Shown: positions 11,620 through 60,496 of the stretch, piece by piece | How the letters are laid out: each line of letters starts with the position of its first letter | Position numbering within the stretch: position 1 is the stretch's first letter | Assembly (NCBI GenBank): GCA_964636285.1 | Contig: CAZWQF010000001.1 | Location: 76,908 to 140,907, forward strand | DNA length: 64,000 nt | Source: an uncultured Candidatus Saccharibacteria bacterium | GTDB taxonomy: Bacteria > Patescibacteriota > WWE3 > UBA101185 > 2-01-FULL-41-18 | Direction: 5' to 3' | Position numbers and translations under genes: made by a program | Notes under the pieces: model-generated | The model's input: the letters and a program-made list of their open reading frames with translations, nothing else | The model's database searches: none | Told to the model about the DNA's origin: nothing

Positions 11620-11719
11620 CCTGTGTCTCTCCCTATGTTACCTTGCGGTTGAAAAGGCCCGCGGGGAAGGTTGTGAGATAAATCTTCCTTCCTATCCACC
11701 GCGGGCCCTTAAGGTGTTG

Positions 11720-12346
11720 CTAGTGTTGTTGGGCGTTTCCCTGTTCCTGGCTGTGTATTCGTAATGCGCCTAGAACAGCACCCATCAATTGATTCGCAGT
11801 GCCTTCTGCTTCTTGGATTTCTTTCTGTTTGGCTTTCTGGTCCATGAATTGACCTTTTAACGCCTCAATTTGCTTTTTGAGGTGCTGAGGGTCTTGGACG
11901 CCAGGGAAGTTATACCCCCTTCCCTTTGCCACAAACTTGATATCTCCTGTGCTTAGTACCCTGATCAATACCGGATTTACTCCTCGGCCTTCAATCCAGG
12001 CAGCAAATCCAGATGTTAAACCAGAGAACCAGCCTCTATTTACATTGACACTCTCCAGATCCAAAAACTCAACCCCAGCTAGTTCGTCTCTGAGACGACT
12101 AGGTTGCCAGCCTTCATTAATGTTGATCCTTCCGGCATTCATATCCACTGAGATGAAGGCTGTGGAGTGTACAGCATAGTAGAGTGCGTAGAACCCAAGG
12201 GTAAGGGCGGCTATACCGAACAAAACCCAGCCTAAGCTTGGGATTTGGTCAAGCCAGCTTGTGTTCTCTTGAATCCACCATGGCATGGCAATGCTTGCAA
12301 CCGCTCCTACATTCAGTAGTAGCCCTTTAGGCGTAAAGAGCGCCAT
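11720..12346 (-). CDS. Membrane protein with two N-terminal TM helices followed by a bacterial PH-like (YdbS/YdbT-like) soluble domain. The start is more likely at internal Met (MALFTPKG) at 12346 than at 12475.
   Basis: ORF 11720-12475 overlaps the upstream gene by >100 nt. Met44 gives a 22-nt intergenic gap. Two hydrophobic helices are followed by an ~100-aa beta-rich segment ('VLIRVLSTGDIKFVAKG'). Confidence 0.45.
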   Translation of the reverse strand: MALFTPKGLLLNVGAVASIAMPWWIQENTSWLDQIPSLGWVLFGIAALTLGFYALYYAVHSTAFISVDMNAGRININEGWQPSRLRDELAGVEFLDLESVNVNRGWFSGLTSGFAAWIEGRGVNPVLIRVLSTGDIKFVAKGRGYNFPGVQDPQHLKKQIEALKGQFMDQKAKQKEIQEAEGTANQLMGAVLGALRIHSQEQGNAQQH

Positions 12347-12368
12347 TCCAAGCAGATTTCTTCTAACC

Positions 12369-12923
12369 TTAAATTCCGTCTCCGTCTCCGTGTGAGAGGT
12401 GCGGCTTTGCGCTTGTGGGCTCTTCACTTTTGGTGGCCCCAAGCACAGGCGCTGATTCAGCCTGGCTGGGTCCATCCTTTTCCTCAGGTTTGAGAAGAAT
12501 CTGCGTAGCCAGGAGAATTATCCCCATGACAATTAGCCACGTGACTGAGGTCAGGATCCAGTCAAAGTTGAAGAGCTTCCAAATCGCGATAGTGATCGCA
12601 TACATAAGAATCAGGAAGCCGTATCCTTTAAACGGACTTCCTTTTCCTAGGATAGTGATCAGTTTCTTTCCTTGTGTCGTGAGGGTTGTGGAAAGAGCCA
12701 GAAAGAACCCCAGAGCCAGAAGCCCAGAATCAAGCGCAGCGTCAGCAATGATGGCTGCGTTGTCTGGCTTGTAGGGAATATCTTTCATCGATCCCGTGTT
12801 GAATGTTTCCCAGGCACTCTGTATTCCGGTGTACGAAAAGTACACTCCAAATAACACAAAAATGCCGATAGGGATGAGCGCCGAGATCATTGTTCTCATG
12901 TTAAGGTCTTGAGCTGATTTCAT
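12369..12923 (-). CDS. Polytopic membrane protein (about 4 TM), island gene
   Basis: ORF track. Four hydrophobic helices. Ser/Pro/Glu-rich C-terminal tail. Confidence 0.55.
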   Translation of the reverse strand: MKSAQDLNMRTMISALIPIGIFVLFGVYFSYTGIQSAWETFNTGSMKDIPYKPDNAAIIADAALDSGLLALGFFLALSTTLTTQGKKLITILGKGSPFKGYGFLILMYAITIAIWKLFNFDWILTSVTWLIVMGIILLATQILLKPEEKDGPSQAESAPVLGATKSEEPTSAKPHLSHGDGDGI

Positions 12924-14062
12924 TGGTAACTCCTTGTCTTGTTACAGATGTGAAGTCCGTAAGTTTGACATGCTATCGATTGGTTCCTGGGGGGGGCAAT
13001 GTTTGCTGGAGGTTGGTTGGGACTTGGTGGGAGATTGGGAGGTATAACCTCGGGAGGCCCGCCCTTCACAATAGTCGCTGGTCCTTCCTCCATCCAGCCC
13101 GACATATTCGCTTGGATCTCTTCTAAGCGTTTTTCAGGCTCTCCTTCCAGTGGTCTTTGCCCTAGCAGGAAGTTCAAGTCCTTAGCTGTAAGAAGGACCA
13201 CAACGGGTTGAAACTGCCGTGTGTTATCCGGCCAGCTAACTTGAACTTCAAGTGTTGCCCCATCGCTTCTTTCCGGGGCGTTTCCTGTGAACCTACCGGT
13301 TTGGACTTTCAGTCCATAGAGATACAGGAGCTCTTCACCGGTTGGGGTACGTCCAGAGATGTTGAGAACCTTCACCCAGAAGAGCACTTCATAGGCAATA
13401 TGCACTCGTGGGTTGACTTTCAAGACTTCTTCAGCAACCTGTTTCAATCGCGTGGCATTTTCTGGCGTGACTGGGCCGTGAAGTTCATCAACCATGGGCT
13501 TGAGAGCTGTTGCTTGTTCAAGTACCCATATGCCAAGCAAGTCCTTTGGGTAGTTTGATACTGCCAAACGGGCCTGCTCCAAAGCTTTGTTGACGTCAGC
13601 GCCATCGCTACTCAGAGCATATGTATCTGGTGCCGCCCCCGGTTGCAGACCAAAGAGGTACTGAAGTGCCACATGGCTCTCGATCGAACCTGGTTTTGGA
13701 AGGAGCTCCGCAATCGGTGTTTCGACCACAGGGACTTGCACCGTTTGACCTGCTTGCGTAGGGACCAATGCACTTACTGTTGGGGTCACAACGCTTGCTG
13801 GAAAAAGGTTCTCGCCAGTGCTGGCAAAGTAACCTTCTTGAGCGCCAGGGGCAAGGTCTCCTCCCAATTGCTTTGTGTCCCCCACAAAGAAGAAAACTCC
13901 AGCTATGTATTTGTATAGGGAGTCCTTCATATAGGGGTTTCTATATGCCCCTGAAGCTGCGGCGAGAATAACTGACAGTGTGAGGATAAACCCAACCAGT
14001 GCCCTAAACAATTTGGTAGGGGATGTAATTAGTTGAGCTACTCCATCAAGGAAGTCTTTCAT
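12920..14062 (-). CDS. N-terminally membrane-anchored extracytoplasmic protein with a proline-rich C-terminal segment (PPEVIPPNLPPSPNQPPANIAPP), island gene
   Basis: ORF track. Single N-terminal TM. 4-nt overlap (ATGA) with the downstream gene, suggesting translational coupling. Confidence 0.55.
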   Translation of the reverse strand: MKDFLDGVAQLITSPTKLFRALVGFILTLSVILAAASGAYRNPYMKDSLYKYIAGVFFFVGDTKQLGGDLAPGAQEGYFASTGENLFPASVVTPTVSALVPTQAGQTVQVPVVETPIAELLPKPGSIESHVALQYLFGLQPGAAPDTYALSSDGADVNKALEQARLAVSNYPKDLLGIWVLEQATALKPMVDELHGPVTPENATRLKQVAEEVLKVNPRVHIAYEVLFWVKVLNISGRTPTGEELLYLYGLKVQTGRFTGNAPERSDGATLEVQVSWPDNTRQFQPVVVLLTAKDLNFLLGQRPLEGEPEKRLEEIQANMSGWMEEGPATIVKGGPPEVIPPNLPPSPNQPPANIAPPRNQSIACQTYGLHICNKTRSYQ

Positions 14063-14078
14063 TTTTTCCTCGCTTTCC

Positions 14079-16235
14079 TTACGGCATAATTCCGTATTCT
14101 ACAAATTCGCTCTCAGTGAAGAGAGGTGTTGTAGTCATACGCACTATGCTGTATAGGACTTGAATTGTTTGTTGCTCTAGGTTTTGCCCTATCGGCAATC
14201 CAAGAATTACAGATGGGTCTATTGTCCCTGCTTGTTTGCTTGTGATTGGTTGTTCAGGTTGATTCCCTGAGACAGACCACACATAGCCATTTTCTCCTTT
14301 TGTTGCTGCAATAGCGTATGCAATTTTCAGAGATCTCAAGAGGAATAACTGGAGCGGAACATTTTTCTGCGTGCTACCTTTAGCGTCAGAAGTGTACATT
14401 ACCGCTGCGGAGAGTACGCTGTTCCAGCCTTCATCAGCTTGTGTGTTTTGAATCCTTCCTTCTTCATCCCATGCGTTTCCTAGGAATCCGTACTTGTTTT
14501 CCAAGGTTTTGATTTGTGTTGCTCTTTGGCCTAGTGTCTCCCAATACCAAGCGCTTTTTGGGTCGTCCCATGCGCCAGGGTTATAGCCACATAGTGAGCT
14601 CCATATGTCACCTGTAGCAATCCAGCTTCCCCAGCACCCCCTTGTAATGAGGTGCCTAGTAGTGCAATCTGCCACAGAAGATGGGTTGTTCCATGGGTCC
14701 ATTGGGCTGTTTGCACATAGCTGTCCAGGAGCAAAATACGAAGGTAGGATTTGTGTCCTGCCTACAGCCCCAGCAGAGGATCCCATGATTTCAAGTGGGC
14801 TGATAAACCTACCAATTCTTTGTGGTAAGTCAGTTCTGGTGTTGAGCCAGTTTGCAATTGCTACAAGGCCCTCTCGTTGGAGTTTTGCCTCATTTGAAAT
14901 CTTCATGCCTAGCACAACACTTTGGTACCAACTTACTGGCCATCTTTCCTCTACGGCATACCAGGCTATGTGGTAACCCCAAGGGCCAGGAGTAGTCGGA
15001 TCAATGTTTCCCCATTCGTTCTGGTTCGTTTCCCCAAAGGGAATTGAGGCAGCAACGCTTGGCGGAAATACAAATCCATTTTCTCCAGACTCAACAGGAC
15101 TCCCATTTTCATCTCTAGGTACCGCAGCTTTATAGAAAGCCCACAGGAGTTCTGGGTCATATCCAATCTCGGATGCTGCAAGTACAAAAACTCCAGGTGC
15201 CTTGCTTGTTTGAGACTGTACATAACCCTTGGTCACAGAAGGGAGGGGAAAGAGTGGGATTTTTGCGATCACCAGAATTGCAAATACGGAGAGGATCGGC
15301 GACAGAATTGTAAGAACTCTGCTGAAGGTCATTTCCGTGATTCGAATTGGTGCTGTCAAAATCCTAATGGCTCTTCTTAGGTCTGCCACCACTCCCACCA
15401 TTGTGACTTCACGTCTGGGGGTTTGTCTTGGCCTGAATACAAACGTAAATCCGTAATATAGAAGCAGTGTTAATGATGTGATGAGAAGTAGGAGTTGGCT
15501 GAAGACCTGGAAAACCATGCTTGTTAGAAGCTTGGTGTACCATTCCTCCCACCACAGCATTGGAATCTGCACTTTGTTGATTTCTGCAATCTCAAGTGCG
15601 GCTTGCACGCTGTTTTGGATCTGGCTTGAAGTAGCCCCTTCTTCCCCGGTGGTACCATCCGCGTACCCTAGGTACTCCGATGGGTTTAACCACTTAACTT
15701 GCTTCAGGTCCTCCACAGTGTGGATGGTTCTGGGATCAATAGCTGTGACACCAAAGTGCACATGATCCGCATTCCCAAAGCCAGACTCACCGATTCTACC
15801 AACAACTCCAACGAGCTGCCCTTTTTCAACCCAATCTCCAACCTTAACAATTGGATTTAAGGTGATGGATTCCTCATCTAGGTGCACATACTGTGTGTAG
15901 AGCACTTCTGCTCCGCAAGTATGCGCAATCCAGATCGAGTTTTCCCATTTCCCTCCAACTTGATCGGGCCAGTCTCCCATGAGCACAACGCGTCCGCTTT
16001 CGGAAGCGTGTACTGGCGTTCCTGCACCTCCAAGAAGATCAATGCCTGAATGGCTATTTGATACCTCAAAGGGAGTCTCTGCTCCAAAGGCTAGCGCCCC
16101 AACTTTGGCTCCTGGTATAGGAGTATCAAAGTCGCAGCTTGCATCAGCCAATGAAGCATTGGTTATACCTTGTGCTGCTCCTGTTATTGCTAGGAGAGCA
16201 GCTACCAACAAACTTCTCAGTCCTTTGGTTTCCAT
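14079..16235 (-). CDS. Secreted or membrane-embedded bifunctional peptidoglycan hydrolase: N-terminal M23 (LytM) metallopeptidase domain, a central cluster of about 6 TM helices, and a C-terminal family-3 (MltB/SLT_2-like) lytic transglycosylase domain
   Basis: Signal peptide 'METKGLRSLLVAALLAITGAAQG'. M23 motifs 'HSGIDL', 'IWIAHTCGAEVLYTQYVHL', 'GESGFGNADHVHFGV'. Hydrophobic block at residues ~235-330. C-terminal 'SSAGAVGRTQILPSYF' resembles the SLT_2 'S.AGAMGPMQFMPSTF' motif. Confidence 0.65.
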   Translation of the reverse strand: METKGLRSLLVAALLAITGAAQGITNASLADASCDFDTPIPGAKVGALAFGAETPFEVSNSHSGIDLLGGAGTPVHASESGRVVLMGDWPDQVGGKWENSIWIAHTCGAEVLYTQYVHLDEESITLNPIVKVGDWVEKGQLVGVVGRIGESGFGNADHVHFGVTAIDPRTIHTVEDLKQVKWLNPSEYLGYADGTTGEEGATSSQIQNSVQAALEIAEINKVQIPMLWWEEWYTKLLTSMVFQVFSQLLLLITSLTLLLYYGFTFVFRPRQTPRREVTMVGVVADLRRAIRILTAPIRITEMTFSRVLTILSPILSVFAILVIAKIPLFPLPSVTKGYVQSQTSKAPGVFVLAASEIGYDPELLWAFYKAAVPRDENGSPVESGENGFVFPPSVAASIPFGETNQNEWGNIDPTTPGPWGYHIAWYAVEERWPVSWYQSVVLGMKISNEAKLQREGLVAIANWLNTRTDLPQRIGRFISPLEIMGSSAGAVGRTQILPSYFAPGQLCANSPMDPWNNPSSVADCTTRHLITRGCWGSWIATGDIWSSLCGYNPGAWDDPKSAWYWETLGQRATQIKTLENKYGFLGNAWDEEGRIQNTQADEGWNSVLSAAVMYTSDAKGSTQKNVPLQLFLLRSLKIAYAIAATKGENGYVWSVSGNQPEQPITSKQAGTIDPSVILGLPIGQNLEQQTIQVLYSIVRMTTTPLFTESEFVEYGIMP

Positions 16236-16540
16236 CTTGCTCTCCTTTCAGGAGTAGATTTTGGTGCAACTTATGCTCTGCACCTGAGCTTATCTTCCCA
16301 ATTTTCTTTCTCTTACCTAAACGTTCCTTATTTTCTTTTCAAAGTTCAAAGCCCCTCCACCTATCCATCCGATCAACCACATTTAGTAGTTTGACAGTCA
16401 GGTGATATAAATTGTTTTATTGAATAATTTATGGGCTTTTAGATGCAGTGATTTTAGACCCATGTATAAACAGAGTCAAACGGATTTTATGATAACTATA
16501 GGATAATTTGCCTATAACCCAAAGTAGACCTCAATGAAAA

Positions 16541-17588: not shown

Positions 17589-20500
17589 CTACTTAATTTG
17601 CATGAAAACCTTCACATCTTTATTAAGGTTTCCATTCATTAAATATGTGTTTCCATTTTTATCAAATTTTGGCTCAGTTCTAGTAACACTTTTTCCAAAA
17701 GGCTCGTCAAACATGATTGTGATGGGAATATTCTCTGTGCCCGGCTGTTTTTGCCAGTAAAGATTATAGATCTTTTCGTCTTTTCCAAGCGCCATATTTG
17801 CGGGTAGTGTGTAGTTGAAAATAAGCTCAAACGTTTCTGCTGGGTTTAGCGTAAAGTCGGTTTCAAGAACCTTCTTTCCAAATTCGCTTCCCTCCTTGAA
17901 CGCTTTTGTTTTTGTGATATCTGTTGTTTTTCCTTGCCCGTCTTTTGTGGTGACCGAATGAACAAACGAATCTTTATTAATCATAACTCTTACGTAATCC
18001 TTGTAAGGTCCTCCTGGCCATGCATTGTCTTTTCCGGTATGCACATACTTAAGAGTTAAAGTTCCTTCAAGCGATCCGTCTCTATAGTTATTTTTAAGCT
18101 CGTATTTGTATTCAGGCCTTACAAAGTAATTAGCTTTGTTCGACCCTACATTACTGTCCACAACCATAATAAAGTCTCCTTTGGTTTGATCAATTGCACC
18201 GTCCCAGCCTCTTTCGGAAATCATTTTGGCAATTTTACTGTCCGCCATTGCAAGTAAAATATGCTTTTCTTCAAGATTTTCCATCAGTTTTTGGGCAAGA
18301 GGAGCAACTTTTTCATTCGAAAGGGAAAAGAGTGTTTCCAAAAGTTTGCTTCCAAGAACAGTTAAATAATCTCTCTTTTGCTGTGAACCTGGTGTATAAG
18401 AAGCTTCTGCATGATACTGAGTTTTTTCATATACATTTCCTGAGTTTACCTCTTCATTGTACGCAGTTAGATATATAGGCCCTGTTACATCCAGAATGTC
18501 TTTAATTAACGTCATATCAATGCCAATCACACCGTTAAACTCAGTCCCATTTGCAGTGTTGTACAGTCTTGCAATTGTTTTAGCCGAATCTGGAAAATTT
18601 GGATTCCAGTTCCCATCTCTGATTCTTAGGAAATTTTGTTTTCCAAAAAGTTTAATTGGATCTGGCGCTGATTCTTTAAAGTTTGCCAAATCAAGAAGCC
18701 CATCAATGTTATAGATATCATCAATTGTAATTTCTTTGATTTTTCCTTCTTCCATTGAGAGCACGGCATAAGATCCTATAAACCCACCTGTTGCCCTAAT
18801 CTCATTTTGATTTTGGAATATGATCAAATACTTTCTTGGGTCCTTAACTCCAATAAGATCTGCTATTACTCCAGATGTGTTTTCTCCTACAGTTAAAGCT
18901 TCAATAACCTTTCCTGACATACCTGAAAACTCTTCAAGCTTCTTTTTTTGCGAAGGAAGAAGATAGCTTGTATCAAGTTCTTTGGCTTCTCCAACAGCTC
19001 TCTCAAGATTTTCTTTTGCACTCTTAAAGTTGAGCGACGCTTTTGAAAGATCTTCTTCATTTATCCCTGACTTTGAATTTGGCTTTATGTTACTCCAGAG
19101 ATTTCCATAAGGCTCTATTCCTTGCGATGCCTCCGTGATTGCAGTAGCGGTGTATTCCCCAATTCTTAAAGCTTTTGCGTAAGTTCTAAGTCTTCCCTCT
19201 TGCCTTGTAAGTACAAACATCCAGCCAAGTTTTGAAAATTCCTCTTTTGCTTTTGCAAATTCGGTTTTTGCTTTTGCTGAGCTATCCTTTGCTACTTGAA
19301 GGTTTAGTTTTTCCATTTGGGTTTTTGACGCGTTTAGGTTGTTAAACCCCGAATTCGCAAAGTAGGCTACTTGCACTGCAGGAACAACAGCCATAAAAAT
19401 TATTGCAGTAAAAACCGCAAAGCCTACAGCCCAAGGAATATACCTACCAAAGCCAGGCTTTCCTGTCTGAGATTTTGGTTTTGGCTCAGCCTTCTGCGTC
19501 TTTACTTGAGGGGTAGCAACATTTTGTTTTGCTGGTTTAACGGGCATGGGTACCACAGTCTGAGCAGGGACAATCAAGGGTGCAGTTGGAGTTGGTATTG
19601 TTGGGGCCGTTTGGACTTTTACTCCAGTGAATGTTGAGCCGTCCTTTGTGGTTTTTGGAGGAAGTAACATTGAGATCCAGTCGGAAAAAGACTTGGACTC
19701 TTTTTTGACTGGAGCAGGCTTTGGCGGAGTTAGCGAGACTGCCTGACCTGAAGTTTTGGCCTGCTCCTTGGTGTCTTTTAGACTTGTAATAGAATCTTCA
19801 ATTAATGGACTTTTTTCTATTTTTTCTAAAAACTTTGAGGGTTTAAAGGCTTTGTCATTGAATTCGTATGAATACCACTTTAAAGTTTTTGTGATGCCGT
19901 TTTTTAGGTCTGTTTTTGGTATCCATTTGAGATTTCTAGCTGTGTCACTGGTTGAGGCTCTTATCTCTCTAATTTTATCTGAAACTGCGTTTCTAAACTG
20001 AACTTGTGTTGAAGTGTTTGATAGGCCTTTTACAAGATAGGTAAGCTCTAAAGTGGTAATTGGTTCGTCGCTTGAGAATGTAAATATTTTTCCATCTGTG
20101 TCATCACTAAACACAGTTTTTACAAGTCCAGAAACTACGTCTGCAACAAAAAGATAGTAGTTTTTCTCAAGGCCGTCGCCAAATACTGTTAAGTCCTGAT
20201 GATCAAGGAGAAGCTTTGTGAGTCTTCCAAGCTCTCCTCCAGAAGTAAAGTCCATTCTTGGGCCAAATACTTCGCAGAGTCTGGCAATTCTTGCGTTGAT
20301 TTTATGCTTTTTGTGAAACTCCCAAACAAGTGCCTCCGCAAATCTTTTTGCCTCAATTTGAGAAAACTTATTTTCTTCCTGCTGAGTTCGGCCAAAGTAG
20401 TGCTCAAGGTCAACAGACGAAATAGCCCCTTCGTAAACATCAACAGAAGAGACAAGCAAAAACTTTGCATAAGACCTTTTTGCAAGTTCTAGAAGGTTTT

Positions 20501-20897
20501 TTGTACCTATGGCATTTGTTAAAAGCGAATCAAGGGTAATTTTTTGATCTCCATAAATATAAGATTCAAGACCTGCTAGGTGAAAAACATAGTCAACAGC
20601 TTCAACAATAGGCGGTATGCCGTTATTAATGTCCCATTCGATCAAAGAAAATTTGGGATTGTCCATCAGCGAGCTAAGATGGGCTTTTTTGCCTGTAGAG
20701 AAATTATCAAGTACAACAACACGAGCTCCGTTTACAAGCAGAGCTTCAACAAGATGAGAGCCTATAAAACCAGCTCCTCCTGCTACAAGTACAGTAGGTG
20801 CAAGGGCAGATTTTCTAATTGGTGTTGTATTTTCGGTCATGGGCAGTTTTCTCGCTTTATACATTATATTTACACGGGGTTTTGTTGACAAGAACAA
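17589..20897 (-). CDS. Large fusion protein: N-terminal NAD-dependent sugar epimerase/dehydratase (Rossmann domain), Pro/Thr-rich linker, TM helix, and a C-terminal extracytoplasmic domain of about 600 aa with unknown function
   Basis: 'VLVAGGAGFIGSHLVEALLVNGARVVVLDNFSTGKK' (GxxGxxG SDR/epimerase). Linker '...TPPKPAPVKKE...PTIPTPTAPLIVPAQTVVPMPVKPAKQ'. Hydrophobic 'IPWAVGFAVFTAIIFMAVVPAV'. Large C-terminal domain follows. Confidence 0.7.
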   Translation of the reverse strand: MFLSTKPRVNIMYKARKLPMTENTTPIRKSALAPTVLVAGGAGFIGSHLVEALLVNGARVVVLDNFSTGKKAHLSSLMDNPKFSLIEWDINNGIPPIVEAVDYVFHLAGLESYIYGDQKITLDSLLTNAIGTKNLLELAKRSYAKFLLVSSVDVYEGAISSVDLEHYFGRTQQEENKFSQIEAKRFAEALVWEFHKKHKINARIARLCEVFGPRMDFTSGGELGRLTKLLLDHQDLTVFGDGLEKNYYLFVADVVSGLVKTVFSDDTDGKIFTFSSDEPITTLELTYLVKGLSNTSTQVQFRNAVSDKIREIRASTSDTARNLKWIPKTDLKNGITKTLKWYSYEFNDKAFKPSKFLEKIEKSPLIEDSITSLKDTKEQAKTSGQAVSLTPPKPAPVKKESKSFSDWISMLLPPKTTKDGSTFTGVKVQTAPTIPTPTAPLIVPAQTVVPMPVKPAKQNVATPQVKTQKAEPKPKSQTGKPGFGRYIPWAVGFAVFTAIIFMAVVPAVQVAYFANSGFNNLNASKTQMEKLNLQVAKDSSAKAKTEFAKAKEEFSKLGWMFVLTRQEGRLRTYAKALRIGEYTATAITEASQGIEPYGNLWSNIKPNSKSGINEEDLSKASLNFKSAKENLERAVGEAKELDTSYLLPSQKKKLEEFSGMSGKVIEALTVGENTSGVIADLIGVKDPRKYLIIFQNQNEIRATGGFIGSYAVLSMEEGKIKEITIDDIYNIDGLLDLANFKESAPDPIKLFGKQNFLRIRDGNWNPNFPDSAKTIARLYNTANGTEFNGVIGIDMTLIKDILDVTGPIYLTAYNEEVNSGNVYEKTQYHAEASYTPGSQQKRDYLTVLGSKLLETLFSLSNEKVAPLAQKLMENLEEKHILLAMADSKIAKMISERGWDGAIDQTKGDFIMVVDSNVGSNKANYFVRPEYKYELKNNYRDGSLEGTLTLKYVHTGKDNAWPGGPYKDYVRVMINKDSFVHSVTTKDGQGKTTDITKTKAFKEGSEFGKKVLETDFTLNPAETFELIFNYTLPANMALGKDEKIYNLYWQKQPGTENIPITIMFDEPFGKSVTRTEPKFDKNGNTYLMNGNLNKDVKVFMQIK

Positions 20898-26678: not shown

Positions 26679-26753
26679 TGGAGGCCTGAGCCGGAATCGA
26701 ACCGGCGCATAGGAGTTTTGCAGACTCCCGCCTTACCACTTGGCTATCAGGCC
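26679..26753 (-). tRNA. tRNA-Cys (anticodon GCA)
   Basis: Minus-strand reading GGCCTGATAGCCAAGTGGTAAGGCGGGAGTCTGCAAAACTCCTATGCGCCGGTTCGATTCCGGCTCAGGCCTCCA. 7-bp acceptor stem. Anticodon loop CT-GCA-AA. T-arm GGTTCGATTCC. Encoded CCA. Confidence 0.85.
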
Positions 26754-55241: not shown

Positions 55242-55511
55242 ATGTTTGAGTTAGTAGATTATTTTGCAACTTGGTGTGGACCTTGCCACGCAATGCACCC
55301 AATTATTGAAGACGTAGAAAAAGAGTATTCAACAAGGATTAAATTTTCAAAAGTTGATGTAGATCAGCACCAGGATAAAGCCGCACAGTTTGGTGTAATG
55401 AGCATCCCAACATTTATTGTTATGAAAGACGGAAAGGAAGTTGATAGAAAAGTAGGAGCAATGACAAAAGATAAATTTAAGTCATGGCTTGATGCTTCTC
55501 TGTTAAAATAA
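55242..55511 (+). CDS. trxA: Thioredoxin
   Basis: 'ATWCGPCHAM' contains the WCGPC active site. 89 aa. Confidence 0.85.
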   Translation: MFELVDYFATWCGPCHAMHPIIEDVEKEYSTRIKFSKVDVDQHQDKAAQFGVMSIPTFIVMKDGKEVDRKVGAMTKDKFKSWLDASLLK

Positions 55512-55513
55512 AC

Positions 55514-56599
55514 ATGCCAGTTAAAATTGCTATAAACGGTTTTGGAAGAATAGGAAGAGCAGCCTATAAAATTGCTCAAAAACATCCAGAACTTGAAATT
55601 GTTGCTATCAACGATTTAACAGATCCAAAAATTTTAGCTCACCTTTTAAAGTTTGATACTAACTATGGCGTTTACGATAAAGAAATTTCTGTAGAAGAAG
55701 ATGGGCATGTTGTCCATTCGGAAGATAATTATTCCAAAAAATCATACAAAGCTAGTACATCTACAAGTGATAAATATCTTGTAGTTGATGGAAAAAAGAT
55801 ACTTGTGACTTCCCAAAAGGATGCAACGCTACTTCCATGGGGAAAGCTTTCAATTGATGTTGTTTTAGAATGCACAGGTAGGTTTACAGATGAAGGTGCA
55901 GCTCAGGTGCATATCACTGCGGGAGCAAAAAAGGTAATTGTTTCTGCACCTACAAAAGGTGGAGGAGTAAACACATACCTTTTTGGGGTAAACTCTGGAA
56001 ACTACGCAGGAGAACAGGTTATATCAAACGCCTCTTGTACTACAAACTGTATCTCTCCCGTTGCTTCTATCATTCATTCAAAGTTTGGAATTGCAAAAGC
56101 AACAATGACTACAATTCATGCAATTACTGCTGAGCAGTCACTTGTTGATGGGCCTCCACCACCGCTTCATCCTGACATGAGGAGAGCAAGAGCGGCAGGC
56201 TATAACTTGGTTCCAACAACCACAGGAGCTGCAATCTCAACCACAGAGGTAATTCCTGAACTAAGAGGCTTATTTGATGGCTTGTCTGTAAGAGCTCCAA
56301 TTTCCGTTGGTTCACTTGCTGACTTTACCATCATGACCAAAAAGCCTGTGACAGTTGAAGAAGTTAATCAGGCATTTATTGAAGCTAAAGATCAACCTTT
56401 GTACAAAGGTGTTCTTGATGTGAGCTACCAGCCTCTTGTGTCTTCGGACATAGTTGGTTCAAGCTTTTCGTCAATTGTTGACCTATCTATGACAAAGGTA
56501 ATTGGAGGCGATTTCCTAAAAGTTGTTGCGTGGTATGACAACGAATGGGGTTACTCCAACAGACTTGTTGAAATGGCCCTTAAAGTTGGCACAGCCTAA
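55514..56599 (+). CDS. gap: Glyceraldehyde-3-phosphate dehydrogenase (type I) with an internal insertion
   Basis: 'IAINGFGRIGR', 'ASCTTNCISP' (catalytic Cys), 'WYDNEWGYSNR'. Confidence 0.9.
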   Translation: MPVKIAINGFGRIGRAAYKIAQKHPELEIVAINDLTDPKILAHLLKFDTNYGVYDKEISVEEDGHVVHSEDNYSKKSYKASTSTSDKYLVVDGKKILVTSQKDATLLPWGKLSIDVVLECTGRFTDEGAAQVHITAGAKKVIVSAPTKGGGVNTYLFGVNSGNYAGEQVISNASCTTNCISPVASIIHSKFGIAKATMTTIHAITAEQSLVDGPPPPLHPDMRRARAAGYNLVPTTTGAAISTTEVIPELRGLFDGLSVRAPISVGSLADFTIMTKKPVTVEEVNQAFIEAKDQPLYKGVLDVSYQPLVSSDIVGSSFSSIVDLSMTKVIGGDFLKVVAWYDNEWGYSNRLVEMALKVGTA

Positions 56600-56603
56600 A
56601 TAG

Positions 56604-57641
56604 ATGGATTCGTTAAGCCACTTAAATAAAATACTTCTGGAAAACAAAAAGATTCTTGTTAGAGGTGATTTAGATGTTCCTGTTAAAGAGGGAAAAGTTG
56701 TTGATGCTTCAAGACTTGATGCTTTGAGGGAAACGCTCGATTATCTTCTACTTAGGGGAGCTAAGGTAGTTCTCATGGGCCACATGGGAAGGCCAGACGG
56801 AAAAGTTGTTGAAGAGTTGAGGCTAAATCCAGTAGCTGATTATCTTAAATCCCTTGGATATCCTGTTATAAAAGTTAATTCTGTTCTAGGATCTGAAGTC
56901 ACAGAAAATTTAAAGATCCTAAATCAAGGTGAAATACTTCTACTTGAAAACTTAAGATTTGATCCTAGGGAAGAAAAGAATGATGAGCAATTTTCTACCG
57001 ATCTTGCCTCGTTAGGTGATGCCTTTGTAAATGAATCATTCGCTACATCACATAGAGCACATGCCTCTACTTACGGCATAGTTTCAAAGATTAAATCATA
57101 TGCAGGAATAAGGCTCTGTGCAGAAGTAGAGAACATTTCAAAAGCTATCCAAAATCCTGAAAGTCCTGTAGTTGCAATATTGGGCGGAGTAAAGCTTGAA
57201 ACAAAGCTACCTGTAATTGCTAGATTTTTATCTATAGCAGATTACATCTTGCTTGGAGGAAAGCTAGGTTTAACTTACGAAGGGGACAATAATTCAAAAA
57301 TCTTGGTACCAATAGATTATTCATCCGATAATCTTGATATTGGACAAAAAACTGTCCCAATGTTTGAAAATGTAATTAAGATTGCCAAGACCATTATTTG
57401 GAATGGCCCTATGGGCAAGTTTGAGGATCCTAACTTTTTACATGGTACAAAGAAAGTTGCTGAGGCTGTGGCAGAGTCTGGAGCCTTCTCTGTAGTTGGA
57501 GGCGGTGACACAATAGAGGCTTTGAATCATGTGGGACTTCTTGATAAGATGAGCTTTGTTTCAATGGGCGGAGGTGCCATGCTTGAATTTATTGCAGGCA
57601 ACAGGCTCCCTGGCCTTGAAGCATTAGGCTATTATGGTTAA
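56604..57641 (+). CDS. pgk: Phosphoglycerate kinase (compact, 345 aa)
   Basis: 'KILVRGDLDVPV...', 'VVLMGHMGRP', 'ILLLENLRFD', 'GGGDT', C-terminal 'SMGGGAMLEF'. Confidence 0.85.
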   Translation: MDSLSHLNKILLENKKILVRGDLDVPVKEGKVVDASRLDALRETLDYLLLRGAKVVLMGHMGRPDGKVVEELRLNPVADYLKSLGYPVIKVNSVLGSEVTENLKILNQGEILLLENLRFDPREEKNDEQFSTDLASLGDAFVNESFATSHRAHASTYGIVSKIKSYAGIRLCAEVENISKAIQNPESPVVAILGGVKLETKLPVIARFLSIADYILLGGKLGLTYEGDNNSKILVPIDYSSDNLDIGQKTVPMFENVIKIAKTIIWNGPMGKFEDPNFLHGTKKVAEAVAESGAFSVVGGGDTIEALNHVGLLDKMSFVSMGGGAMLEFIAGNRLPGLEALGYYG

Positions 57642-57915
57642 AAAAATCCTTAGGATTTCGGCACCTGAAAAGTGCATTGGCTGTGAGCTATGCGTATTTG
57701 CAGTCCAGCGAATGCTTAATAAAGTTGGGGTAGCCTCAACTCCCATTAGAATTCTAACGAGTGGTGATAAATTTAGTATTCATGTTGACCCTTCGGTAAA
57801 TGAGCTAGATATCAAAAAAATAACTGAAATCTGCCCTAAAGGTTGTTTCTCTGTTGAAGAGGCTGCAGCTCAAGATGGGCCTGAATTCTCGTTAAGGGAG
57901 GATAAAGAAGAATGA
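57634..57915 (+). CDS. Small ferredoxin-like Cys-rich protein (CxxCxxC ... CPxGC)
   Basis: 'CIGCELC' and 'CPKGC'. Overlaps pgk by 8 nt and the next gene by 4 nt, suggesting an operon. Confidence 0.5.
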   Translation: MVKKILRISAPEKCIGCELCVFAVQRMLNKVGVASTPIRILTSGDKFSIHVDPSVNELDIKKITEICPKGCFSVEEAAAQDGPEFSLREDKEE

Positions 57916-58787
57916 ACCTAAGTAGCATTAATATTTTGCACATAGATCTAGGTAGAAGGACCTTTACTTCAAAGTCGTACCCAGAGCTTAGGAAGTACAT
58001 TGGAGGGGTTGGCCTTGCCTCTAAGCTTGTATTAGATCATCTGGATACATTACCCGTTGTTTTTAGTACAGGGCCTTTAAATGGCCTTTTCCCATTCGCC
58101 TCAAAAACATGTGCTGGTTACATACAAAACAATAGATTTGTAGATTGCTATGGCGGTGGCAGGCTTTCTACCAGAATAAATTTAAGCGGTTACGACGCTG
58201 TTATTTTTGATGGGGTTTCCATTGAGCCTCTATCAATAGTTGTAAATGAGAAAGAAGTGAGCTTTGTTAGCTTTGAAATAAATCCAGAAACACTCGGGGT
58301 TCCAGGTAGAAAAAGCTTAGTAAGTGCAACGAACCAAGGTGTTCAAGTTGATAAGTACTTTTATTTTGGAGACAAAGCTTTGGCGGAGAGGCTTAAGGAG
58401 AAGGGTGTCTACAATTTTGTAATCTCAGCAACAAACGATACAGCTCTGCCAAACAAAGAAAAATACGAAAAAATGTACTACGAGGTTCTTGGAATGGTAA
58501 ATAAAATGCTTATAGCTCCGGGCAACCATCCTTCCTGTTCCGGGTGTCCAATGGGTTGTGAAAAATCTCATGAAGGTGAGGTGGGAGGAAGCGTTCTTGT
58601 GCATTCTCTAGTGGGATGCGGTTACGCTGAGATGATTTATAGCAGTGTGTCTTTAGTATTTGGATGTCTTAACAGTCTCGGGTACGATTATGTTCACGAA
58701 GACCTTGAGGCTTTGAGTAATCTTGTTTATTCTAATATCAATGAAATTAATGAAAAATTATCTAATAGCCAATTGGAAAGAAAATAA
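57912..58787 (+). CDS. Miniaturised aldehyde:ferredoxin oxidoreductase (AOR)-like protein. It has an AOR N-terminal domain plus a CxxCxxxC Fe-S motif but lacks most of the pterin-binding C-terminal domains (291 aa).
   Basis: 'YIGGVGLASKLVL...VFSTGPLNGLFPFASKTCAGYIQNNRFVDCYGGGRLSTRINLSGYDAVIFDGVSIEPLSIVV' tracks the AFOR_N consensus (GGxGL...TGPLTG...SGYDAI..G.). 'CSGCPMGC'. Confidence 0.55.
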   Translation: MNLSSINILHIDLGRRTFTSKSYPELRKYIGGVGLASKLVLDHLDTLPVVFSTGPLNGLFPFASKTCAGYIQNNRFVDCYGGGRLSTRINLSGYDAVIFDGVSIEPLSIVVNEKEVSFVSFEINPETLGVPGRKSLVSATNQGVQVDKYFYFGDKALAERLKEKGVYNFVISATNDTALPNKEKYEKMYYEVLGMVNKMLIAPGNHPSCSGCPMGCEKSHEGEVGGSVLVHSLVGCGYAEMIYSSVSLVFGCLNSLGYDYVHEDLEALSNLVYSNINEINEKLSNSQLERK

Positions 58788-59421
58788 AACACTAAAAGAA
58801 GTTCAGGACTTCTTTGAAAAATTCGCAAAGATTTACAAACCTGTTGAGGGGCTTGAGGTGGTTATTTGCCCTTCGTTTCCATATTTAGCAGAAGTAAAAG
58901 CTCAGATAGAAAAATATGGGCTCAAAAATGTGAATTGCGGTGCTCAGGATGCCTCTGTGTATAAAGAAGGGTCCCACACTGGTGAGGTGTCCCCACTACA
59001 AATAAAGGATTATTGTGACTATGTGATTCTAGGTCATAGCGAAAGGGCTGAATCATTTAATCTTATTCTAGAAAAAATTTCTGGATGCCATTCGGCTGGA
59101 TTAACGCCTATTATCTGTTTAAGTGCGCCTGAGGAGTTTATGTACGATTTTATTCAAGAGAACGTACTCCTTGTTTGGGAGGATCCTTCAAACATTTCAA
59201 AAGACGGCGTTTTCCGTGTAAAATCTGAAAGCGAGTTTGAGGTTGGGGTAAAAAAGATTAAGGATGAAATGCCAACTGATAGGCCATTGATTTACGGGGG
59301 TTCTGTAAATCAAGATAGCGCTGATATGATGCTAAAGAATGAAAGCATCAAAGGTTTTCTTGTAGGTAAGGCAAGTTTAACCCCTGAAACCTTCAACAAT
59401 CTTGCACAAAAATTTAACTAA
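58750..59421 (+). CDS. tpiA: Triosephosphate isomerase. Start taken at internal Met (MKNYLIANWK); tool start is 58723.
   Basis: 'IANWKEN', 'ILGHSERAE', 'GGSVN'. Confidence 0.85.
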   Translation: MKNYLIANWKENKTLKEVQDFFEKFAKIYKPVEGLEVVICPSFPYLAEVKAQIEKYGLKNVNCGAQDASVYKEGSHTGEVSPLQIKDYCDYVILGHSERAESFNLILEKISGCHSAGLTPIICLSAPEEFMYDFIQENVLLVWEDPSNISKDGVFRVKSESEFEVGVKKIKDEMPTDRPLIYGGSVNQDSADMMLKNESIKGFLVGKASLTPETFNNLAQKFN

Positions 59422-60496
59422 TATGAGATACGTTGACCTAGGTGCTGTGAATGCTATGAATGAAAAGCGAAAGCAGGAGCAGCAAACCCACAAAAGAAAA
59501 TGGTGGAAACTTCTTTTTATAGTTCCTGTTTTTGTGGTTCTATTTTTGGTGGTGAACGCAATAAGAAAAGAGGGCTTGGCAGCGCTGCTTAATCCAGTTT
59601 CTATTGTGTCTGATTTTGTATCCCCATCTAAACTCGCGGAAGCAGATGGACGAACAAATGTGCTCGTCTTAGGTTTGGACAGAAGGTCTTACCAAAAAAC
59701 AGGAGGTCTAACGGATACTGTTTTGGTAGGTTCTGTAAGTAGATCCTCAAAGCAGGTAGACATGATTTCACTACCAAGGGATTTATGGGTTGAAGCTCCA
59801 GGCGGGACTAGAACAAAAATTAATGGCGTGTATGCACTTGAGAGTAGGGAGTCCCTGGAGAAAGTAGTGCAAGATGTTACGGCACTTCCAATTCATTACT
59901 ATGTGATAGTTGATTTTGCGGTTTTTGAGAAGGTGATAAATGTAGTTGGTGGTATTGATGTTAATGTTGAGAATTCGTTTGATGACTTTGAGTACCCCAT
60001 TGAAGGAAAAGAAGATGCAATGCCAGAAAGCGAAAGATACTTACATGTTCGTTTTGAAAAAGGTCTTCAGAAAATGGATGCAAAAACGGCTCTAATTTTT
60101 TCAAGGTCTAGGCATGGTACAAACAATGAGGGTACTGACTTTGCAAGGGCAAAGAGGCAGCAGCTTGTCATTAAAGCTGTTTGGGATAAAGTTTTGTCAC
60201 TTGAGACTCTCTCAAACCCTATGAAGATAAAAGAGCTTTATGACACGTATAAAGACTCGATCGATACAAATATTGGGCTTGCTGAGGGTCAAGAATTTTT
60301 TGAAATTGGAAAAGAAATTGGATTTAGTAATGTGAAATCGCTCGTTCTTGATGATAGAAGCACAGAAGAAGAGGGCGGGCTTTTATATGCCCCACAAGAT
60401 AGAACACTATATGGCGGGGCTTACGTACTTATTCCAAAGTCAGGTGATTATTCACAAATCCATGGGTATATTCAAAAACTTCTGTTTAGCAAATAG
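59402..60496 (+). CDS. LCP-family (LytR-CpsA-Psr) cell-wall glycopolymer phosphotransferase
   Basis: N-terminal TM. 'NVLVLGLDRRSYQKTGGLTDTVLVGSV...DMISLPRDLWV'. Confidence 0.8.
   Translation: MHKNLTNMRYVDLGAVNAMNEKRKQEQQTHKRKWWKLLFIVPVFVVLFLVVNAIRKEGLAALLNPVSIVSDFVSPSKLAEADGRTNVLVLGLDRRSYQKTGGLTDTVLVGSVSRSSKQVDMISLPRDLWVEAPGGTRTKINGVYALESRESLEKVVQDVTALPIHYYVIVDFAVFEKVINVVGGIDVNVENSFDDFEYPIEGKEDAMPESERYLHVRFEKGLQKMDAKTALIFSRSRHGTNNEGTDFARAKRQQLVIKAVWDKVLSLETLSNPMKIKELYDTYKDSIDTNIGLAEGQEFFEIGKEIGFSNVKSLVLDDRSTEEEGGLLYAPQDRTLYGGAYVLIPKSGDYSQIHGYIQKLLFSK

Follow-up and report, generated by a model that had tools for sequence, protein, structure and literature searches.

All known members of the AOR/WOR family, to which the aldehyde:ferredoxin oxidoreductases (AOR) belong, contain a tungsten- or molybdenum-bis-metallopterin bound via domains 2 and 3, and every characterised protein of the family is a tungsten or molybdenum enzyme of approximately 600 amino acids (aa) (PMC12096430). 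Truncated members are not described in this 2025 review of tungsten enzymes. AOR (1AOR) and FOR (1B25) of Pyrococcus furiosus comprise about 605-620 aa. In two-subunit AORs, i.e., WOR5-L/S of P. furiosus (6X6U), AorAB of Aromatoleum aromaticum (8C0Z) and 9MQX, the gene of the large AOR subunit lies beside a gene for a small Fe-S protein. Two further members of the family, GAPOR (glyceraldehyde-3-phosphate:ferredoxin oxidoreductase) of archaea and GOR of bacteria, are ferredoxin-dependent, full-length tungstoenzymes that act at the GAPDH/PGK step. Here we describe a gene pair that recalls both arrangements. It is located in a stretch of 64,000 nucleotides (nt), referred to as the window, of contig CAZWQF010000001.1 (assembly GCA_964636285.1, positions 76,908 to 140,907) from an uncultured Candidatus Saccharibacteria bacterium that GTDB places in WWE3 of the Patescibacteriota. 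Between the glycolytic genes pgk and tpiA, the pair encodes a 93-aa ferredoxin-like protein, named fdx, and a 291-aa relative of the AOR large subunit, named mini-AOR. A search of the literature on AOR, GAPOR and AFOR_N in WWE3, the Candidate Phyla Radiation (CPR) and Patescibacteria retrieved no description of mini-AOR.

We are highly confident that mini-AOR (57912..58787, forward strand, like all genes of this block) was derived by reduction from a large subunit of the AOR/WOR family. The Pfam profile AFOR_N (PF02730) matches the protein with 69.6 bits (E=4e-19, cut-off 29.8), which bears out the homology proposed in the original prediction, made from the window sequence alone. There, the likeness had been placed in the first ~120 residues; its extent is larger, as a family profile aligns residues 7-194 to residues 7-228 of AOR/FOR, i.e., to all of domain 1 with internal deletions. 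In profile alignments to 1AOR and 1B25 this compacted domain spans residues 1-196 (57912..58499), and K65, Y80 and G82-G83 take the positions of Arg76, Asn93 and Gly95-Gly96 of P. furiosus AOR. Only about 85 residues follow, equivalent to AOR residues ~284-309 and ~486-545. The AOR-type CxxCxxxC motif that had been recognised at the outset lies in the first of these pieces, where C209-S-G-C212-P-M-G-C216 (58536..58559) aligns to Cys288, Cys291 and Cys295, ligands of the [4Fe-4S] cluster in P. furiosus AOR. The C-terminal 60 residues represent the domain-3 segment with the fourth cluster ligand rather than the region after Cys295: C236 (codon 58617..58619) corresponds by its spacing to Cys494, the 21 residues from C236 to G257 being identical to the Cys494-Gly515 distance in 1AOR, and L256-G-Y-D-Y-x-H262-E-D264 (58677..58703) corresponds to AOR 514-522 (LGWDFTTED). 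A reading of 'CLNxLGYDY' as the DxxGLD motif of AOR at Asp338 was rejected on the basis of these two equivalences. All four cluster cysteines are invariant within the mini-AOR family (121/121 sequences).

Comparison of a predicted structure with P. furiosus AOR, as the original prediction had suggested, points in the same direction. The AlphaFold2 model derived from the 121 sequences reached a pLDDT of 95 and a pTM of 0.93, and Foldseek retrieved with it AOR-family chains only (E<=1e-13, query-normalised TM-score ~0.6).

What is missing is equally well delimited. Mini-AOR yields no match to AFOR_C (PF01314), even at E<=1, and AOR residues ~229-283, ~310-485 and ~546-605 have no counterpart. 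In 1AOR numbering, checked by alignment, the absent segments hold Glu313, the region Asp338-Thr344 with its motif Asp338-x-x-Gly-Leu-Asp (338-344), His448 and Lys450; most of the pterin-binding parts are lost, as had been foreseen. Within domain 1, the AOR loop H181-R-A-A-G-R-G-G-V-G is gone (RGGxG in 0 of 121 sequences), and in the domain-3 remnant AOR position 489 is occupied by His, the DxxGLC motif (489-495) reading H-S-L-V-x-C. Arg182/Ala183 with the RGGxG loop, DxxGLD 338-344, Lys450 and DxxGLC 489-495 are reported to bind the metallopterin in P. furiosus AOR, where Glu313 and His448 are said to be second-shell catalytic residues and Arg76 reportedly contacts the pterin phosphate. Compared with P. 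furiosus AOR and FOR, mini-AOR (~285 aa throughout its family) thus lacks the pterin-binding motifs, the second-shell residues and the RGGxG loop, and Lys replaces Arg76. We consider it quite probable that mini-AOR functions without metallopterin. Since three separate deletions spare exactly the four cluster ligands, the Fe-S site appears to be what selection preserves.

The relatives of mini-AOR form a size series at a single locus. An exhaustive hidden Markov model search of 1.84 billion representatives returned the ~285-aa form as about 40 clusters. Next in rank, above the canonical AORs of 585-620 aa, came Patescibacterial proteins of ~540-555 aa with AFOR_N and a weak AFOR_C match (48-92 bits). 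This uncharacterised 545-aa family (P0163, P0160, P0272, P0296 and others) is the closest full-length relative; it occupies the same slot and has the same 79-aa ferredoxin upstream, in the order uvrD-trx-gap-...-pgk-79-aa ferredoxin-AOR-like-lytR-holA-...-pilO-S20-murJ. It differs from mini-AOR in that AFOR_C, the RGGxG loop (39/39) and the (D/E)YE motif are kept, tpiA does not follow, and a few members lack the cluster cysteines. Both families share two derived residues, Lys at the position of Arg76 and His at that of Thr520, the latter being H262 of mini-AOR, which is invariant in both and replaces the Thr of canonical AORs. The sequence of the Cys494 helix is very similar between them as well, and hhalign of the two profiles aligned domain 1 alone, the local alignment ending at the deletion. 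At the lower end, rarer micro forms of 198, 215 and 217 aa retain, apart from the C-terminal module, only the N-terminal half of domain 1 and are located between the ferredoxin and tpiA; the 198-aa form is devoid of the CxxCxxxC motif. The ferredoxin gene thus accompanies versions of 538-550 aa and of 198-217 aa in addition to mini-AOR.

In a neighbour-joining tree of LytR and HolA, midpoint-rooted and approximate, the loci bearing 545-aa genes form a clade of their own outside nearly all mini-bearing loci, which is consistent with one main reduction event. The 545-, ~285-, ~215- and 198-aa forms in one slot are a reductive series; the ferredoxin/AOR-like pair next to pgk is older than the reduction in size, and this arrangement, far from being confined to the genome of the window, is ancestral to a large clade. 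To describe the pair as inserted between pgk and tpiA, as was done originally, is misleading, since its place beside pgk predates the reduction and the 545-aa clade has no adjacent tpiA. It is in the mini and micro clades alone that tpiA and the AOR-like gene are neighbours. Outside the CPR, the nearest relatives of the 545-aa family (P0310-P0361) are uncharacterised AOR-like proteins of 575-615 aa with ~30% identity from Chloroflexota and Desulfobacterota, e.g., Pseudodesulfovibrio (584 aa). P0167 (604 aa), the sole large relative from outside the CPR family that was aligned, appears to lack the His448/Lys450 signature.

The upstream partner, fdx (57634..57915), carries one cluster motif, C14-x2-C17-x2-C20 ... 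C67-P68. CxxCxxC ... CP is present in 89 of 91 fdx loci, 69 of which encode exactly four Cys, and an alignment of 76 sequences leaves C14, C17, C20, C67 and P68 as the only invariant residues. The initial assignment as a CxxCxxC...CPxGC ferredoxin can be kept as far as the ferredoxin-like character is concerned; the second Cys of 'CPxGC' is not conserved. Pfam Fer4 matches 40 of 76 members at E<0.01 (best 8.7e-6), and the window protein scores 18.3 bits, under the cut-off of 21.1. Judged by its motif, fdx is well supported as a putative single-cluster ferredoxin; a search for multiple [4Fe-4S] motifs revealed this one only, and fdx does not qualify as a polyferredoxin. The small subunits of the WOR5-S/AorA type, in contrast, are polyferredoxins of 150-190 aa with several clusters, compared with ~90 aa and one cluster in fdx. 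A profile search of PDB sequences places such subunits near the top, with statistically marginal matches (WOR5-S, 6x6u_B, E=0.013 over residues 9-81, nearly the whole of fdx; 9mqx_E, 0.15; AorA, 8c0z_C, 0.29). The AlphaFold2 model of fdx reached a pLDDT of only 58, and Foldseek found no significant match in PDB, only generic beta-alpha-beta-beta-alpha-beta folds. As a suggestion only, fdx may have arisen by reduction from the small Fe-S subunit found with some AORs. Identical or near-identical copies of fdx carry the JGI label 'NAD-dependent dihydropyrimidine dehydrogenase PreA subunit', which is likely to mislead metabolic reconstructions.

The pair is embedded in a conserved block trx-gap-pgk-fdx-miniAOR-tpiA-lytR. 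The block is opened by a thioredoxin gene (trx, 55242..55511; the Thioredoxin Pfam domain was identified on the orthologue of relatives), followed by gap (55514..56599; type I GAPDH, 361 aa, Gp_dh_N and Gp_dh_C) and pgk (56604..57641; 345 aa, Pfam PGK, 351 bits). Downstream of the pair lie tpiA (58750..59421; 223 aa, short type, Pfam TIM, probable ATG at 58750) and a LytR_cpsA_psr gene (59402..60496), which by Pfam and synteny marks the edge of the block. The two overlapping open reading frames (ORFs) of 93 and 291 aa were confirmed as first described. In the window sequence, the pgk stop and the fdx start overlap by 8 nt, fdx and mini-AOR by 4 nt (ATGA), and the mini-AOR end and the tpiA start, given its probable ATG, by 38 nt. 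A Shine-Dalgarno sequence GGGAGG (57896..57901) is situated within the 3' end of fdx, 10 nt 5' of the mini-AOR ATG. A consensus scan for promoter- and terminator-like sites in the block revealed no excess over shuffled sequence. The Gp_dh_N match of gap falls into two stretches, with a Lys/Ser-rich segment (residues ~70-100) inserted in the NAD-binding domain. The best PDB matches of the TIM are 7r7m and 7r9b, TIMs of 216 and 223 aa, compared with ~250 aa in the usual bacterial enzymes; some Katanobacteria TIMs group with archaeal sequences (Jaffe et al. 2020).

Mini-AOR is a functional gene and neither a frameshifted fragment nor a decaying pseudogene. A search of 5.8 billion proteins found 131 homologues, and the 120 listed are all 272-312 aa long and match AFOR_N only; the named source organisms belong to candidate division WWE3 or Patescibacteria. 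The early assignment of the window to a CPR bacterium is borne out. A scan with one genome per GTDB species located relatives in 110 genomes, one of them the complete WWE3 genome CP006914. Among 121 sequences with 38-89% identity to the window protein, 18 residues are invariant. For pairs at 60-95% identity, dN/dS amounts to 0.116 for mini-AOR, 0.145 for fdx, 0.113 for pgk, 0.079 for gap and 0.168 for tpiA, figures that are approximate as dS (1.4-1.9) is near saturation. The frameshifted or fragmentary AOR that had been considered as a possible refutation was rejected on three grounds: at least 120 homologues of 272-312 aa, a dN/dS of 0.12, and three internal deletions instead of a truncation. 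P0121 (324 aa), examined as a natural fdx-miniAOR fusion, proved to be a mini-AOR with insertions only.

The pair is conserved in relatives, as had been anticipated: fdx is located directly upstream of mini-AOR in 88 of 88 loci. Among 80 species representatives, tpiA follows mini-AOR directly in 78 and pgk directly precedes fdx in 66, while in 12 gap is followed immediately by fdx-miniAOR-tpiA and the locus has no pgk. The loci with gap directly before fdx-miniAOR-tpiA and without pgk are L007, L012, L013, L020, L023, L024, L042, L051, L082, L083, L085, L086 and L087. Conservation of gene order extends over the whole region and takes in unrelated genes (uvrD ... lytR-holA-sortase); adjacency to glycolytic genes thus fits inherited order as well as functional coupling.

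Our overall interpretation, to which we give slightly better than even chances, is that a cofactor-less AOR derivative and a ferredoxin together form a two-cluster module for electron transfer or redox sensing and carry out no aldehyde oxidation. Mini-AOR would have kept a compacted domain 1 and the four [4Fe-4S] cysteines while three segments, comprising nearly all of domains 2 and 3, were removed. The pair would no longer bind a W/Mo-bis-metallopterin and would be unable to oxidise aldehydes or glyceraldehyde-3-phosphate. Instead, mini-AOR would hold a [4Fe-4S] cluster that acts with the cluster of fdx in electron transfer or redox sensing; a specific role as electron carrier or sensor is tentative and seems to us rather doubtful. 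The module would share its transcript with pgk and tpiA and be coupled to them in translation, and we propose that its abundance would consequently track lower glycolysis. Such a module fits a fermentative, ferredoxin-using organism, given that genes for PFOR and a hydrogenase occur in the complete WWE3 genome and that 'a ferredoxin oxidoreductase-like protein' is listed among its electron carriers (PMC3812714).

Several observations weigh against this interpretation. Three proteins of 545-550 aa, P0158 (L093:5001-6653), P0286 and P0296 (L091:7001-8644), have lost the four cluster cysteines, and the 78-79-aa ferredoxins upstream of P0158 and P0296 keep all four of theirs; cluster-to-cluster transfer can hence not alone explain the pairing. 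The pterin-facing residues K65, Y80, G82, G83 and R88 of domain 1 are invariant in mini-AOR, which is unexpected for a surface without ligand or partner and is compatible with binding or catalysis at this site. Cluster binding by mini-AOR is predicted from alignment and model. A different redox function, that of a ferredoxin:thioredoxin reductase (FTR)-like protein, was considered on account of trx in the block and a fifth cysteine, C252. It was rejected, as the 545-aa and micro forms have Ala at the position of C252; the CPC/CHC disulfide motif is absent from mini-AOR, too.

The best surviving alternative, though in our view an unlikely one, regards the pair as a structural or regulatory partner that binds PGK, TIM or GAPDH, its cluster being structural or serving to sense O2 or redox state and so to adjust lower glycolysis. 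The pair's translational coupling to its two neighbours pgk and tpiA, the direct neighbourhood of tpiA and pgk in 78 and 66 of the 80 species, the thioredoxin gene at the head of the block, and the persistence of Cys-less 545-aa variants with their ferredoxin all speak for it. Along this line, a mirror-tree analysis gave a partial correlation of 0.50 for pgk-miniAOR, the highest in one data set and not reached in any of 499 permutations. The co-evolution signal is, however, not robust: with gap added (41 loci), the value drops to 0.31, equal to that of miniAOR-lytR and lower than that of gap-pgk. The partial correlation of fdx and mini-AOR (0.17) is unremarkable, fdx being short and its distances noisy. 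Moreover, the 12 species whose locus lacks pgk, and the 545-aa clade, in which tpiA is missing from it, argue against a dedicated partner of either enzyme, and the conserved order of the whole region may reflect plain inheritance.

A bolder proposal unites this idea with a catalytic one. The pair would represent a minimal, WWE3-specific Fe-S machine on lower glycolysis, either a PGK-/TIM-associated redox switch or a pterin-independent, ferredoxin-linked enzyme that binds a triose phosphate via its exposed cluster and the cleft that once held the cofactor; we regard it as quite unlikely. The catalytic version in its own right, namely a new pterin-independent Fe-S enzyme in which the cleft left by the deletions binds a small, possibly phosphorylated metabolite for ferredoxin-linked chemistry, has in our estimate little chance of being correct. 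It can draw on a cleft lined by the exposed cluster and by the invariant residues K65, Y80, G82-G83, R88, E223, H231 and H262, on the replacement by K65 of Arg76, the reported pterin-phosphate contact, on operon neighbours that all handle triose phosphates, and on purifying selection as strong as that on pgk. Yet all four cluster ligands are Cys, leaving no obvious open iron site, and in the 198-217-aa versions half of domain 1 has disappeared, in one of them CxxCxxxC as well. According to the literature on the complete WWE3 genome, the pathway has no missing reaction that would be a candidate (PMC3812714).

A decaying relic without function of its own, kept by its position inside an essential operon, is already disfavoured and highly improbable. 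Progressive shrinkage from 545 to 285, 215 and 198 aa and the occasional loss of cluster cysteines would be expected of a relic; a dN/dS equal to that of pgk, the 18 invariant residues, a stable length across at least 110 species-level genomes, the strong Shine-Dalgarno sequence before mini-AOR, and deletions that precisely spare the four cluster ligands are not. The original prediction had offered a relic of a more specific kind, a remnant of ferredoxin-dependent glyceraldehyde-3-phosphate oxidation. Its first half finds support in the sister clade, where an AOR-like gene of 545 aa with AFOR_N and AFOR_C occupies the same slot beside the same ferredoxin. The second half is unsupported by the sequences, as the NCBIfam GAPOR model (NF040818 GAPOR_Arch) does not match mini-AOR, the 545-aa relatives reach just 18-30 bits where 1300 are required and fall behind even an ordinary AOR with its 44 bits, and the locus carries conserved genes for both GAPDH and PGK. 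The proposed link to GAPOR is not supported: despite the thematic fit of GAPOR and GOR to the locus, mini-AOR is, judged from sequence comparison with the archaeal GAPOR model and not with bacterial GOR, without specific GAPOR affinity.

The weakest alternative, a still metallopterin-dependent aldehyde or glyceraldehyde-3-phosphate:ferredoxin oxidoreductase whose cofactor site is rebuilt by oligomerisation or by a partner, appeals to AOR ancestry, the ferredoxin partner, the place beside gap and pgk and the conserved pterin-touching loops of domain 1, and is extremely improbable in view of two unusable DxxGL(C/D) regions (the first deleted, the second altered), the loss of Glu313, His448, Lys450 and the RGGxG loop, the poor GAPOR scores, the presence of GAPDH and PGK under selection, the binding of bis-metallopterin via domains 2 and 3 in all known family members (PMC12096430), and the lack of any Mo/W gene among the 20 largest other ORFs of the 64-kb window. 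Neither Mo nor W is mentioned in the paper on the complete WWE3 genome.

Elsewhere in the window, a GC-rich patch at 11700-16300 (0.47-0.50 compared with ~0.38 elsewhere) encodes a 718-aa Peptidase_M23 protein and three ORFs of 380, 251 and 184 aa without Pfam match; it may be acquired DNA or merely a group of compositionally odd envelope genes. On the reverse strand, an ORF of 1102 aa (17589-20897) combines an N-terminal NAD-dependent epimerase/dehydratase with a DUF4012 domain. The only Rfam matches in the 64 kb are a tmRNA gene (1654-2041, 121.9 bits) and one tRNA gene (26682-26753).

Mini-AOR represents a miniaturised and probably cofactor-less branch of the AOR family, not previously described in the literature found: a conserved and selected derivative of ~285 aa that retains only domain 1 and the iron-sulfur cradle and has discarded the cofactor-binding domains. 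Relatives of 545 aa on one side and of 215 and 198 aa on the other share its slot, so that protein miniaturisation in the reduced genomes of CPR bacteria can be followed here through a natural series of unusual clarity. In databases, the protein is labelled 'hypothetical protein' or 'aldehyde ferredoxin oxidoreductase N-terminal domain-containing protein'; the JGI label, 'aldehyde:ferredoxin oxidoreductase', is misleading, and reconstructions of WWE3 or Patescibacteria that credit it with aldehyde oxidation or acetate-to-aldehyde reduction are probably wrong. If the redox switch or the pterin-independent enzyme held true, mini-AOR would be the first protein of the AOR family to work without metallopterin. 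If its role is indeed coupled to pgk and tpiA, WWE3 and Patescibacteria, whose fermentative metabolism is sparse, would gain a new redox component in the pair.

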